The position numbers and the translations under genes were made by a program. The notes under the pieces are model-generated. The model saw nothing but the letters and a program-made list of their open reading frames with translations. It did not search any database and had not been told where the DNA came from. Source: a plasmid. From it: 64,000 bases of DNA. Positions 33,331 to 60,330 of the stretch are shown here, in pieces. The stretch's first letter is position 1. Each line of letters begins with the position of its first letter. The stretch lies in NCBI RefSeq assembly GCF_057098645.1, contig NZ_JBXSPU010000002.1; one strand, written 5' to 3'.

Positions 33331-33375
33331 TCGAACTAAATAACAGCTCCTAATACCGCTACACTTTAGCTATCC
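33331..33375 (+). repeat. copy of a short conserved motif (CTAAATAAC.GCTCCTAATACCGCTACACTTTAGC) also present near 56326 and 60251
   Basis: Near-identical about 35-bp string at three loci in the same orientation. Confidence 0.5.
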
Positions 33376-33769
33376 AGTCTGCGCCTCAGAAATGGACGAT
33401 GCCGTTGAAGGACTGGTGTATGGCAATGAGCCGCTTTATTATCGAATTCGGTGACCGCCTGGACGGTCACTTCGGAGAAAAGGCATTTACACAGCATCCT
33501 AAACAGGTTCAGCATAGGTGATATACCGCCTTTTCATTTTCTTCTCCATTATTTATAAGGGAGGTGTATTATTATGCAATATTATTGGTTTTACCCATTG
33601 TTTTTTTCAGTTCATGAATGTTTGCAAAAAAAATAAATGAACAACAATTTTATGTATTTAAAATAAATTAATTTTACTTCTGTAATGGTGTCATGATTAG
33701 CAGCTTTTTAAACTAATATCGACTTTCAATAAATAAGGACAGGTAATGGACAACAAAAATATCTGAACC

Positions 33770-34280
33770 CGGGTGAGATTCATAAGTTGCACAGTGCTGT
33801 CTTTAAAGTGCCACACCCGGAACGTAATCACTGCCTGCTCCTTATGGGGTATCTTCATGGTGTCCAAGCATCAGAGTTATTAGGTATAAAACTGTCTGAT
33901 ATTGATTTGCAGGCCGGTAACCTGAATATCCGGCGGCTCTAAACGGTTTGTCAACTCAGCCCCTCGGCTGAAACAGGAGGTACAGTCCATTCGTCGCTGG
34001 CTGAAACTTCGGGATGAATGGGTAGAAGAGGGATATGAATGGTTATTTAACCTCTATGGCAGGTCTGCTACAGGTATTACTGTTGTTCTGGGGGGGCACT
34101 GGTGTGGTTAATATCTACGATGCAAGAGATTCTCACGATGGCCCGGTCCATCAGTGCATGCGGCGCGATATTGTGCGAGTATTTTTCAGGGGGAGTGGTA
34201 TCCGGATGCAGAAAATTCCGCTACTCGACTGGTTTTATGCAATAAATCAGTATGATAATCTTCTGATTTTTTACTGAGGC
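33770..34280 (+). pseudogene. degenerate tyrosine recombinase/integrase-like gene fragment
   Basis: Frame encodes YLNPGEIHKLHSAVFKV...LLLMGYLHGVQASELLGIKLSDIDLQAGNLNIRRL then stops, with frameshifted continuation. Confidence 0.3.
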
Positions 34281-34543
34281 GGATATCTCTCGCTGTGTTT
34301 ACTGAAATTGCGGTATTCTGTTTTTTCTGAAAAACAGAAAATCTGATTAAAAAGAGCATATGCGTTAAGGGAAATTTAAGTTCTGGTTGATTAACTGATA
34401 AAAATATTAAAAAATCCCTGTTGTCGGTAATCTCCGGACCATTCCGGGATTACACAATAATATCACCATGTGTGATATCTATGGATCCTCACTGTTGTTT
34501 ACGCGAGGATATTTTCAGAATGCTTAACAGACGATAATTTTTT

Positions 34544-35365
34544 ATGTTGAATGCAAGGCATCTTCCCGTACTGATGTATCATCATGTCAGTCGTTGTCCG
34601 GGGCTTGTGACACTCTCACCTGAAACATTTTGTGAACAGATGAAGTGGCTCGCAGATAATAACTGGCGGACGGTAACATCTGCTGAGCTTGAATATTTTT
34701 ATCAGGGGGGAACGCTTCCACGAAAGAGTGTCATGCTCACATTCGATGATGGTTATCTTGATAACTGGCTCAGAGCATGGCCGGTCCTGAAGGAATATAA
34801 CCTTCATGCACATATTTTTCTCATTACGGGGCTGATTGGTAAGGGAAACGTACGTAGCAGGCAGGAGCAGGAATATTCTCACCGCGACTGTGAACGGTTG
34901 ATTGCCGATAACCGTTCAGATGAGGTCATGCTTCGCTGGTCTGAAGTCCGGGAAATGCGTGATTCCGGACTGGTTGAATTTCATGTGCACACCCATTCAC
35001 ATAAACGCTGGGACAGGTTGTCTGTATCACGTGCTGAACAGTGCCGGCTCATGAAAGAAGATATTCTGGTGGGAAAACAATGTCTGACGGAAAAGCTGGG
35101 GTTCTGTAGTTCCCATCTGTGCTGGCCTGAAGGATATTATAATCGGGATTATATTAATCTCGCCGGTAAGCTTGGTTTCTCTTATTTATATACAACCGAA
35201 AGAAGAATGAACTGTCCTGAAAATGGTTCATTACGCATAGGGCGTATCAGCACCAAAGAGCGGGAACATTCCGGCTGGCTGAAACGACGCCTTTTTTATT
35301 ATACAACGCCACTTTTTTCTTCAGTACTGGCTCTTCATAAGGGGCCAAGATTACCAGATAATTAA
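34544..35365 (+). CDS. ecf1: polysaccharide deacetylase family protein
   Basis: NodB-type motif TFDDGY; first gene of a four-gene LPS/lipid A operon as remembered from pO157. Confidence 0.8.
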   Translation: MLNARHLPVLMYHHVSRCPGLVTLSPETFCEQMKWLADNNWRTVTSAELEYFYQGGTLPRKSVMLTFDDGYLDNWLRAWPVLKEYNLHAHIFLITGLIGKGNVRSRQEQEYSHRDCERLIADNRSDEVMLRWSEVREMRDSGLVEFHVHTHSHKRWDRLSVSRAEQCRLMKEDILVGKQCLTEKLGFCSSHLCWPEGYYNRDYINLAGKLGFSYLYTTERRMNCPENGSLRIGRISTKEREHSGWLKRRLFYYTTPLFSSVLALHKGPRLPDN

Positions 35366-36471
35366 TGATGAAAATTTTATTCACTGAATCTTCGTCAGAT
35401 ATTGGGGGCCAGGAGCTGCAGGCACTGGCCCAGATGACTGCTCTTCAAAAGCAGGGACATTCCGTTTTACTTGCCTGCAGGGAAAAAAGTAAAATTGCTC
35501 CGGAAGCCAGAAAAAGAGGGCATGATGTCACTTTTATCCCTTTCAGGAACAGCCTTCACCTTCCTTCCATCCTCAGACTTCGACGGATTATCGGGGAATT
35601 TAAACCTGATCTGGTCATCTGCCATAGTGGCCATGACAGTAATATAGCAGGACTGAGCCGTCTGATATGCTGTCACCGCTTCAGTATTGTCAGACAAAAA
35701 ACCTACATCACCCGTAAGACCCGAACGTTTTCCCTGAATTATCTGTGTGATTTCATTGTTGTGCCTAGCTCAGCCATGATGGCGCATCTGATGGCGGAAG
35801 GTGTCAGGACACCGGTAACGGTTATTCCACCGGGTTTCGACTGGCCCGCATTGCATAATGAAGCCATGCGACCGTTACCCCTGCATATCCACGCCTGGGC
35901 TGCATCAGCAGACAATGTTCCGCTTATCGTTCAGGTGGGGATGCTACGTCCCGAAAAAGGACATGAATTTATGCTGCGTGTATTGTATCAGCTGAAGATG
36001 GAAGGGAAATCATTTCGCTGGCTCGTGGTGGGCGCCGGGCGTGAAGAATACGAAGCACGTCTGCGTCAGCAGACAGAACACCTGGGAATGAGCGGAGATG
36101 TGTTAATGGCAGGTGCCCTTTTCCCAGCGTTACCGGTCTACCGGATTGCCAGTGTGGTGGTCATGCCTTCGGAAAATGAAGCGTTTGGTATGGTACTGGC
36201 TGAAGCGTCAGTCTCTGGCGTGCCCGTTATCGCCAGTGAGACGGGCGGGATCCCTGATGTCATTCAGAAGAATGTGACAGGGACGCTGTTACCCGTGGGG
36301 GATGTGTCTGCATGGACCGGCGCACTGCGCGATTTTTTATCCCGACCGGAACGCTTCCGGATGATGGCAGCCAGCGCCAGAGAAGATATTGAGTGCCGGT
36401 TTGATATTAACAGAACGGCACAGATCATTGTGTCTCTGGCTAGTCAGGCTAAGGGGAAATGTAACAGATAA
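35365..36471 (+). CDS. ecf2: family-1 glycosyltransferase (LPS core glycosyltransferase-like)
   Basis: C-terminal GT1 signature (PSENEAFGMVLAEA ... GVPVIAS); overlaps ecf1 stop. Confidence 0.8.
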   Translation: MMKILFTESSSDIGGQELQALAQMTALQKQGHSVLLACREKSKIAPEARKRGHDVTFIPFRNSLHLPSILRLRRIIGEFKPDLVICHSGHDSNIAGLSRLICCHRFSIVRQKTYITRKTRTFSLNYLCDFIVVPSSAMMAHLMAEGVRTPVTVIPPGFDWPALHNEAMRPLPLHIHAWAASADNVPLIVQVGMLRPEKGHEFMLRVLYQLKMEGKSFRWLVVGAGREEYEARLRQQTEHLGMSGDVLMAGALFPALPVYRIASVVVMPSENEAFGMVLAEASVSGVPVIASETGGIPDVIQKNVTGTLLPVGDVSAWTGALRDFLSRPERFRMMAASAREDIECRFDINRTAQIIVSLASQAKGKCNR

Positions 36472-36560
36472 CGGCGGATCCTCTTTTCAGCCCGAATTTT
36501 GTTCAGCGGTTTTCCGGTAACGGAGTAATTTATCACATTGTTTAAATACGGGGACGGTCA

Positions 36561-59436: not shown

Positions 59437-59480
59437 TTTTTTAGAGATATTTTGAATCTTATTTGCAATGAGCACTCGAA

Positions 59481-59869
59481 ATGAAGAACAATTTGAGAGA
59501 AGAGAAAGAAGTCGTTCTTGATGGATGTATAAATGTATTGTCATTACCTTCAGAATGGAAAGCAATTACACCTAAAAAAATAATGTCACATCGGAGATAA
59601 TAGTGTTTTTCATTCCCCCCAAGGCTTCTTATCACATTATATTAAAATATGATAACACAAAACATTGCGAATTATTTTTTTCAGACCACATCACCGGCGA
59701 ACAAGATGTTATATATTCACAAAGTGCTTTTTTCTCACATGTGATTAATCATATAATAGCTTTAGTTGATGTTCTTAATAAGAAAAGTTACGCAAGCAAT
59801 GTTATAAAATTTTTGATAACGATGGAAGGAGGCGGTGATATTCTTTCTGAATCAAAAAGAGCACCATAG
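59481..59869 (+). pseudogene. small ORF between the AraC-like gene and the perC-like gene (perB position), apparently frameshifted
   Basis: ATG at 59481 reads about 39 codons then stops; 59603-59869 continues in another frame. Confidence 0.3.
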
Positions 59870-59917
59870 TTTATCAAGTAAAAAATGACACATACACTAC
59901 TATAAATAAAGGTAATT

Positions 59918-60187
59918 ATGGAAATAAGAGATAAAAAGGCGAAGTACTTGGAAGAAAAAGGGTTTTATAGACGAGCTGCAGATCGCTGGGCAGAGATAAT
60001 GGTACATTTATCTAGTGACGCTGAGAGAAAATTGGCAGCTCAAAAGTGTGCATTCTGCATTAATAAATCTCTACGTAATAATCTGCAAGCAGATAACTAT
60101 AGCGACATAAAACAAGGAGTTTATAAAGCATATAAGAAAATGGGGCTTGTAAATGAAAAAATATTTAGAAGCTACAAGGAAAATTAA
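59918..60187 (+). CDS. small basic protein, 89 aa, PerC/Pch-family-like candidate regulator
   Basis: Size and position downstream of an AraC-like gene fit a perABC arrangement; identity by recall only. Confidence 0.4.
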   Translation: MEIRDKKAKYLEEKGFYRRAADRWAEIMVHLSSDAERKLAAQKCAFCINKSLRNNLQADNYSDIKQGVYKAYKKMGLVNEKIFRSYKEN

Positions 60188-60250
60188 ATTATAACGTAGA
60201 TTGAGTCTAAATAACTGTTCGGAATAGTAGATCTCTCAGGGGGATCTCAG

Positions 60251-60330
60251 TCCGGTTTATGCTAAATAACTGCTCCTAATACCGCTACACTTTAGCCAGC
60301 CCATGTCCCCGACCGGGGAATGGGCTGACG
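60251..60330 (+). repeat. copy of the conserved motif plus GC hairpin (CCCATGTCCCCGACCGGGGAATGGG)
   Basis: Same motif as 33331 and 56326. Confidence 0.5.

Follow-up and report, generated by a model that had tools for sequence, protein, structure and literature searches.

IS630-family ends as the probable identity of a motif beside two group II introns on a mosaic Escherichia coli virulence plasmid

A motif of about 35 bp recurs at three loci in a 64,000-nt stretch of plasmid DNA (NZ_JBXSPU010000002.1; hereafter the window), and two of its copies lie close to group II introns. The plasmid is a mosaic E. coli virulence plasmid of the pO157/EAF type. This arrangement raises the question of what the motif represents and how it came to neighbor the introns. 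The first-pass annotation proposed an intron homing target, the end of a mobile element, or an attachment site. Sequence comparison favors the second proposal: the motif is very probably the terminal inverted repeat at the outer end of IS630-family insertion sequences, a judgment that extends jointly to the account of the introns given below. As Tc1/mariner-like DDE elements, IS630 copies would carry in the right terminal repeat the part that their transposase binds and cleaves.

The motif at the tips of IS630-family elements

Four parts make up the motif: a C derived from the target, a duplicated TA, the right inverted repeat of the IS, and the stop codon of the transposase gene. Its pattern occurs exactly at 33336-33370 and 60262-60296 on the + strand, where chance would supply 0 occurrences. 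The third locus (56343-56377), initially grouped with these two as a conserved copy, gives no match within 3 mismatches and is a diverged homologue (29/35 identical); the positions first given for the loci were also 5-11 nt off. In the intact elements L003, L002, and L030, the motif sits at the element tip and the transposase coding sequence ends within it. Two of these served as references for the two IS630 species in the window (L003 2003-3161 and L030 461-1603).

The reference transposase contains HTH domains and DDE_3 (Pfam, E 4e-22). Left and right terminal repeats are identical over 20 nt in L030 and at ~17/21 positions in L003, and the window's left end at 60207 and right end at 60262 have CTAAATAACTG.TC..AATA in common. 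Both reference elements are flanked by C-TA ... TA-G, consisting of a CTAG target with TA duplication, and a C-TA or TA-G half-site is kept at all four IS630 tips in the window. TA duplication by IS630 has been described previously (PMC2170065). The motif region matches 2,209-2,246 plasmid records, and among the full-length matches listed, the annotation is IS630 family transposase. A scan of viral contigs with a 14-mer of the inverted repeat returned 120 loci, mostly chance matches, from which ~30 real IS630 ends were kept.

The terminal repeat, the CTAG/TA target, and a transposase gene ending in the right repeat are shared with IS630 of Shigella sonnei, with relatives in E. albertii, Pantoea, and EHEC chromosomes, and with "ISSpu2-like" elements in Klebsiella and Salmonella. 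Intact relatives encode an HTH + DDE_3 transposase; the window copies are stubs, none of them functional. A blastn search of the window with the reference elements recovered five IS630 fragments (right-end stubs of 34, 103, and 72 bp, a left-end stub of 56 bp, and an internal fragment of 196 bp) and no complete element or transposase ORF. The three right ends and one left end belong to two IS630 species that are mutually 79% identical; the second reference matches the 60262 copy at 83% identity over 71 nt. All four ends have lost their inner part and survive as inert scars among mobile elements nested within one another.

As an IS630 end, the motif is an already known element and not a new one; it brings neither a new mechanism nor an answer to an open question. 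The first-pass annotation had held that a motif internal to a known IS would count against its proposals, and the comparisons lead essentially there, with the motif being part of a known IS, at its end. The value of the finding lies mainly in annotation. RefSeq shows no feature under the three scars, which can now be labeled as IS630-family ends, and both intron remnants obtain exact boundaries and histories.

The first right-end stub (33336-33370, - strand) comprises the target C, the duplicated TA at 33337-33338, and the last 32 nt of the IS (reference 1125-1158), with the complement of the transposase stop codon at 33359-33361. It is 94% identical to the end of an E. albertii IS630-family element, and its flank, ..ttcgaaC-TA, is the half-site expected of a CTAG target. 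On its inner side, the stub is cut by a fragment of IS1414, an IS256-family element (33369-33511), which matches annotated IS1414/IS256-family transposase ends at 88-94% identity. The surrounding sequence (33126-34100) is 99% identical to O157:H7 plasmids, and the region of the IS1414 fragment is common to pO157-type plasmids. The second stub (56343-56445, - strand, ~103 bp) belongs to a different IS630 species, of the EHEC-chromosomal type, and includes the diverged motif (56343-56377) and a weak hairpin (56378-56408). It shares 95.1% identity with positions 1041-1143 of the IS630-family element located beside nleE/efa1 in L030 and 86% with the E. albertii type.

Nested IS630 copies and the adjoining palindrome

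Downstream of perC, two further IS630 copies are nested. The left end of copy A (60207-60264, + strand) consists of C-TA and IS positions 2-57, followed by the CTAG target of copy B (TA at 60263-60264), and is 93% identical to the reference left end. The segment at 60200-60260, first interpreted as a partial tandem duplication of the motif, is this left end of a separate element. Copy B contributes a right end of 72 bp (60262-60334, - strand; reference 1087-1158), in which the motif (60262-60296) is followed by a hairpin (60297-60327) and by ACGGTAT (60328-60334). An internal fragment of the same copy (62080-62275, - strand; positions 877 to 682) is 96.4% identical, is listed in RefSeq as a partial IS630 family transposase, and agrees with the right end in orientation and subtype. 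In pMAR2 and pEC404/03-1, the same copy A runs on as ..GGTTTATGCTAGCTGG.. and reads ..TATGCTAGCTGG.. exactly where copy B begins in the window. The CTAG insertion of copy B into copy A is observed directly in this comparison, as are the identities and boundaries reported here, and the event would correspond to canonical transposition into a CTAG within the left end of copy A.

The adjacency of a left and a right IS630 end at 60207-60334 could also suggest the ends of a non-autonomous, IS630-derived MITE or, in a related reading, an integrase attachment site. Copy B having inserted at the CTAG of copy A explains that adjacency. The geometry is not that of a MITE, since the two tips do not face outward: the right end meets the left-end fragment, tip first, at the latter's interior position 57. 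No integrase gene and no direct-repeat pair bracketing a cargo accompanies the motifs, and every stub runs on into transposase coding sequence, which argues against both versions. We therefore regard this reading as extremely improbable, and nothing supports the attachment site proposed at first. The identification of the motifs as ends of transposase-encoding IS630 elements is preferred.

A strong hairpin had been reported behind the motif at two loci. The description holds at 60297-60327 (DNA fold -14.2 kcal/mol, z -3.8; -24.2 kcal/mol with RNA parameters) but not at 56378-56408, where the fold is weak (-7.5 kcal/mol, z -1.8). No hairpin is present at the 33336 copy, in which the stub is cut just ahead of the hairpin position. 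The hairpin DNA corresponds to the last dozen or so transposase codons, encoding the C-terminus ..SPFPGGKHGL... The possibility that the hairpin is a structural element conserved across the IS630 family was considered and rejected, with stability ranging from -24 to -9 kcal/mol across ends. Gly codons vary synonymously (GGG to GGT or GGA) in ways that disrupt the stem and are not compensated, yet the peptide SPFPGGKHGL is conserved; the palindrome therefore looks like a by-product of coding.

The E.c.I3-like intron next to the second stub

Intron 1 (56470-58272, - strand) is recognized by Rfam matches and comprises an IEP ORF (56554-57780) with RVT_1 and GIIM domains and a domain V-VI region at 56470-56547. 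Described at first as intact, it is in fact missing 19 nt at its start, the GUGUG 5' splice site among them. The sequence is 97.2% identical to positions 20-1852 of an intron plus exon in L029, where a full-length copy of 1824 nt resides within an IS66-family tnpC gene. Removal of the intron from L029 restores the tnpC reading frame (..GRKNWLFAGSDSGGEHAVALYSLIGT). Between intron 1 and the second stub lies a remnant of 28 nt (56442-56469, - strand), TCGCGGGTTCCTACAGCGGTGGCGAACA, which matches the 3' exon of the L029 copy and derives from an IS66-family (IS679-like) tnpC. Shigella copies keep 14+ nt of the same exon. The remnant joins the stub at an ..AAC.. microhomology, and the stub begins ~25-29 nt past the 3' end of the intron; the motif earlier placed just beyond that end is indeed near, but it stands behind the exon remnant.

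At the opposite side, the truncated 5' end of intron 1 is fused to a common plasmid backbone fragment (58273-58428) that adjoins a recombinase gene in many plasmids and has ~95.6% identity with sequences of numerous Klebsiella, E. coli, and Salmonella plasmids; this similarity stops at 58272. A rearrangement, and not homing, fused intron 1 to the IS630 stub. Its real home is the tnpC gene of an IS66/IS679 element, and illegitimate recombination very probably brought it beside the stub.

This origin resembles E.c.I3, a class D intron that targets IS679 (PMC3522654). The full-length relative shares with E.c.I3 a length of 1824 nt, a home in IS66-family tnpC, and fragments on Shigella virulence plasmids (PMC3522654 and its supplementary tables), and the label "E.c.I3-like" rests on length, target, and Shigella-plasmid distribution, not on a reference sequence. 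Unlike E.c.I3, the window copy is 19 nt short at the 5' end, and the DNA on either side of it is unrelated, namely the backbone fragment and the IS630 stub.

A sense insertion of intron 1 into the IS630 transposase gene was also considered, in parallel to RmInt1, a group II intron that lacks an endonuclease domain and lives in the IS630-family element ISRm2011-2 of Sinorhizobium meliloti (PMC4496777). This candidate was rejected, as L029 identifies the 28 nt after the intron as IS66 tnpC exon. RmInt1 recognizes a sequence of 25-30 nt inside the IS, whereas of the window introns, one made use of only a hairpin and 4 nt, and the other came to lie beside its stub through rearrangement. The two window introns provide no evidence for a dedicated IS630 homing site in E. 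coli.

The same observations bear on whether motif and hairpin form a homing site shared by both group II introns. Two of the three motif copies do fall within ~30 nt of an intron end. However, the introns differ in class and in their orientation to the motif, which lies upstream of the 5' end of one and downstream of the 3' end of the other, and intron 1 is separated from its stub by the IS66-type exon of a tnpC gene that houses the full-length copy. Moreover, the copy at 33336 has no intron, and the motif occurs in ~2,200 plasmids, compared with only nine, all identical, for the motif-intron junction. A shared homing site is accordingly scarcely credible.

The class C intron behind the strong hairpin

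Intron 2, which starts at 60335 on the + strand, is very probably a class C (IIC) group II intron, now decayed. Its 5' part (domains I-IV; 60335-60803) is defined by Rfam matches to D1D4-3 and D1D4-1, and the 5' boundary was set by comparison with 7 other insertion sites. At the 5' end, GUGCG has mutated to GTGCA. A truncated IS66-family element (60804-61700, - strand; tnpA and part of tnpB) replaces ~800 bp of the RT-coding region, after which an IEP fragment (maturase/GIIM) follows at 61701-62087 on the + strand, with GIIM in the ORF 61613-62134; the comparison with the full-length relative L004 stops at 62087. The 3' truncation has removed ~190-270 nt of the intron, including domains V-VI, and the 3' exon is deleted as well. 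In L004, the IEP (448 aa) finds its best PDB match in the GsI-IIC RT (E 2e-124, 419 bits) and has RVT_1 and GIIM as its only domains, with no endonuclease domain; the window copy keeps the GIIM part only.

The first-pass annotation correctly placed the motif just before the 5' domain of this second intron, which begins 7 nt past the strong hairpin and directly after GTAT. These four nucleotides (60331-60334, + strand) are the IBS1 and the last of the 5' exon, and they complement the EBS1 loop ATAC at 60537-60540, a match observed directly. Insertion sites of IIC introns follow a terminator or another inverted repeat at a distance of 3-11 nt from its stem, and their IBS1 measures 3-4 bp (PMC1702495). 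At all eight independent insertion sites compared, a hairpin ends 0-9 nt upstream of the intron, with z <= -2.4 at 6/8; the hairpin upstream of the L006 site is weak (z -0.7). EBS1 covaries with the exon IBS1 across independent insertions, the pairs being ATAC/GTAT in 5 copies and ACAA/TTGT in 1. EBS1 is deleted in 1 copy, and at the L025/L026 site, IBS1 TTAT faces EBS1 ACAA with one A-C mismatch.

Could the adjacency of intron 2 and the IS630 hairpin be a chance rearrangement, as for intron 1? The region is heavily rearranged, the 3' side of the intron is deleted, and the junction is confined to a single plasmid lineage, all of which would fit such an origin. Nevertheless, the 5' end of the intron is complete to its first nucleotide, the preceding GTAT is the exact complement of EBS1 (1/256 at random), a strong stem ends 7 nt upstream as at seven other independent sites, and the IS630 fragments flanking the intron agree in orientation and subtype. 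A chance junction is thus very unlikely. The GTAT/EBS1 match, the hairpins at the seven other insertions, and the covariation together argue that the hairpin and GTAT probably constituted a true IIC target, used once. The proposed intron homing target thereby survives for the class C intron, with hairpin and GTAT in place of the 35-bp motif; it fails for intron 1, which was joined by rearrangement.

Under this targeted insertion, the IIC intron would later have entered copy B by reverse splicing, on its antisense strand, at a point 7 nt downstream of the hairpin and right behind GTAT, landing there because IIC introns recognize a stem-loop and an IBS1 of 3-4 nt. Insertion of the IS66 element and deletions wrecked it, presumably afterwards. 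We infer both this order of events and insertion through retro-homing into single-stranded DNA.

Similarity to class C introns, such as B.h.I1 and E.c.I6 of E. coli (class C in PMC3522654 Table S2), includes an IEP nearest to the GsI-IIC RT, the lack of an endonuclease, a stem-loop a few nucleotides upstream, and a 4-nt IBS1-EBS1 pairing. The label "E.c.I6-like" was taken from the length, class, and target given in that paper, not from a reference sequence. The stem-loop in the window, by contrast, is a palindrome of IS630 transposase C-terminal codons in antisense, without a T-run, and is not a transcription terminator. The intron also differs from its class C relatives in being degenerate, with a GUGCA 5' end, an IS66 insertion, and a deleted 3' end. 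The locus offers a clean natural case in which the hairpin accepted by a IIC intron lies within a coding sequence and is no terminator, while EBS1 and IBS1 still match.

In a broader reading, the antisense palindrome of some IS630 transposase 3' ends, together with GGTAT, might act as a recurrent terminator mimic through which E.c.I6-like IIC introns colonize and disable IS630 ends. We consider this generalization unlikely; if true, plasmid IS630 copies would be both a hidden reservoir and a vehicle for IIC introns. Among 72,556 plasmids, the IS630-intron 2 junction occurs in 9 identical ones. A scan of genome contigs with a 19-mer of intron 2 yielded mostly chance matches in unrelated genes, the real copies being those in L008 and L021.

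Identity of the repeated motif

The repeated motif of about 35 bp is the end of a known transposon, left in the window as scars. A pattern search returned exact consensus matches at 33336-33370 and 60262-60296, both on the plus strand, where none is expected by chance. The first-pass annotation had placed a conserved motif at three loci, but the third shows no consensus match even with up to three mismatches allowed, and holds only a diverged motif (56343-56377, CTAAATAGCTGTGCCGAATACCGCTACACTTTTAC; 29 of 35 positions identical). The strong hairpin described at two of these loci was likewise recovered at one. 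The hairpin at 60297-60327 folds at -14.2 kcal/mol (z -3.8; 56-nt DNA fold), and none of 200 shuffles folds equally well, whereas that at 56378-56408 is weak (-7.5 kcal/mol, z -1.8; DNA fold). The hairpin is absent from the copy at 33336.

By blastn, 60180-60340 matches 2,246 records among 72,556 plasmids, and its 72-bp IS630 stretch searched alone matched 2,209 records. In the matches, the motif and hairpin portion falls under genes annotated 'IS630 family transposase'. An element end, one of the roles first proposed, is confirmed by intact elements from E. albertii pEA25_1 (L003), Pantoea agglomerans (L002), and an EHEC chromosome, beside nleE/efa1 (L030). In all three, the motif is the physical terminus and the transposase CDS terminates within it. 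The TAG stop codon of the transposase appears as its complement, CTA, at motif positions 24-26, and the hairpin codes for the C-terminal residues ..SPFPGGKHGLAKV*. The L003 transposase carries HTH domains and a DDE_3 domain. Terminal inverted repeats are imperfect in the IS630 elements examined, and their flanks read C-TA ... TA-G. This TA duplication inside CTAG is the hallmark of IS630/Tc1-mariner elements (PMC2170065, citing Tenzen & Ohtsubo papers). Across nine family members, hairpin stem energy ranges from -24.2 to about -9 kcal/mol, copy B in the window being strongest; synonymous Gly-codon changes disrupt the stem without compensation, and the encoded peptide is conserved. On sequence comparison, the hairpin is probably not a functional part of IS630.

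Fragments were mapped with two references, an L003-type and an L030-type element, which share 78.7% identity. Right ends, all on the minus strand, lie at 33337-33370 (L003 positions 1125-1158, 94%), 56343-56445 (L030 positions 1041-1143, 95%), and 60263-60334 (copy B; L003 positions 1087-1158, 94%). A left end occupies 60207-60262 on the plus strand (copy A; L003 positions 2-57, 93%), and an internal piece 62080-62275 on the minus strand (L003 positions 877 to 682, 96%). No intact IS630 copy occurs among the fragments mapped in the window. The C-TA or TA-G half-site is preserved at all four tips; hence, each stub still has the junction made by the original transposition, and its truncation came from the inner side. 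At the 33336 stub, an IS1414 (IS256-family) fragment (33369-33511) cuts IS630 after 34 bp. The whole surrounding segment matches O157:H7 pO157 plasmids at 99% identity. On one side of it lies hlyD, and on the other an operon for a polysaccharide deacetylase, a glycosyltransferase, CptA, and an MsbB-like acyltransferase. Four near-identical IS3-family copies are also scattered across the window, their frameshift signals appearing as ALIL pseudoknot hits of 120-121 bits (18763-18879, 22904-23020, 32152-32268, and 40655-40771).

Nested IS630 copies beside the per genes

What had been read as a partial tandem duplication of the motif at 60200-60260 is instead the left end of copy A with copy B in its CTAG. 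The same left end lies downstream of perC in the EPEC EAF plasmids pMAR2 and pEC404/03-1, where it runs on as ..GGTTTATGCTAGCTGGTCAATCG..; the window reads ..GGTTTATGC-TA-AATAACTGCTCC.. at the junction. This comparison indicates that copy B transposed, inverted, into the TA of copy A's CTAG. The arrangement at 60207-60264 is a canonical IS630 insertion. The nesting places copy B at about copy A positions 57-60.

The AT-rich region 58460-60187 (30% GC at 59001-60000) carries perA, perB, and perC. In the identical plasmid pCAU16175_2, RefSeq lists both perB and the HTH regulator gene at the perA position as frameshifted. One molecule combines EPEC-type per genes with the pO157-type hlyD and CptA/MsbB-like operon.

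A class C intron at an IS630 scar

One IS630 scar happened to offer a class C (IIC) group II intron an acceptable stem-loop and IBS1. Boundary mapping against seven further insertion sites of its family places the 5' end of this plus-strand intron, intron 2, at 60335 (GTGCACCGTAACTGG versus consensus GTGCGCCGTGACTGG), downstream of the hairpin stem ending at 60327. The stem is followed by ACGGTAT, and the intron's own EBS1, the loop that pairs with IBS1, is ATAC (60537-60540). On the antisense strand of copy B, this hairpin together with GTAT was therefore a genuine IIC target. The junction is limited to 9 of 72,556 plasmids, all 100% identical, and so records a single event.

Among 5,426 complete E. 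coli genomes, 1,223 contain this intron family. The intron-encoded protein of the full-length relative L004 (448 aa) has RVT_1 and GIIM domains only, and its best solved homologue is the GsI-IIC RT (E 2e-124). At 8/8 insertion sites, a hairpin ends 0-9 nt upstream; several, located after bcsB, grpO, and an alcohol dehydrogenase gene, are evidently intrinsic terminators. EBS1, in the D1 loop GGTGG(C/T)A-NNN-ATCACC, covaries with the final four nucleotides of the exon: in the window copy, L006, L008, L023, and L024, ATAC is paired with GTAT, and in L004, ACAA with IBS1 TTGT. Exceptions are one mismatch in L025 and a deleted loop in L028. Site choice and short pairing agree with published IIC introns, which have an IBS1 of 3-4 bp and follow terminators 'or other inverted repeats' with a gap of 3-11 nt to the stem (PMC1702495). 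E.c.I6 is class C according to PMC3522654 and its Table S2. All these findings are covered by what is already known of IS630 and group II introns.

The window copy of intron 2 is now dead. An IS66 fragment (60804-61700) stands in place of about 800 bp of it, and deletion of its 3' end together with IS630 positions 878-1086 leaves a maturase fragment (61701-62087) abutting IS630 position 877. Its 5' end (60335-60339) reads GTGCA versus GTGCG, the fifth nucleotide being A, not G, and position 60344 is likewise A instead of G. These substitutions suggest that the intron decayed, whether before the IS66 insertion or after it. The L004/L027, L023, and L024 introns carry a 19-nt insertion directly after the first GT (GTGCGCCGGGCATGGCGCGTAGCGCC...), which resembles a duplicated 5' terminus.

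Intron 1 and its junctions

The E.c.I3-like intron 1 starts at 58272 and ends at 56470 on the minus strand. Its full-length relative on pAST205_1 (L029; 1824 nt) starts GTGTGTCACGAAGG and interrupts an IS66-family tnpC; its removal restores ..NNIAENALRGVAVGRKNWLFAGSDSGGEHAVALYSLIGT. The length, IS66/IS679 target, and Shigella virulence plasmid fragments all agree with the published description of E.c.I3 (PMC3522654). The window intron, earlier called intact, aligns at 97.2% identity to positions 20-1852 of the L029 intron plus exon and therefore lacks its first 19 nt. A plasmid-backbone fragment (58273-58428) adjoins this truncated end; it is about 95.6% identical to a sequence that many Klebsiella, E. 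coli, and Salmonella plasmids carry beside recombinase genes.

At the 3' end, a 28-nt exon remnant of an IS66/IS679-type tnpC (56469-56442) is still joined to the intron, and the IS630 stub begins only beyond it, at a short AAC microhomology. The adjacency is thus a rearrangement junction, and homing of intron 1 into IS630 was rejected because this exon intervenes. The stub here has GGTTT in place of GGTAT, and its hairpin is weak. Hence, the proposal of a homing target holds for intron 2, with its hairpin and GTAT, but not for intron 1. In the Shigella pINV copy (L005), 14 nt or more of this tnpC exon remain. An autotransporter gene (1327 aa; 52088-56071, minus strand) starts 272 bp from the stub tip at 56343, and other plasmids (H40-H42) share the block of autotransporter, stub, and intron 3' end at 98.7% identity.
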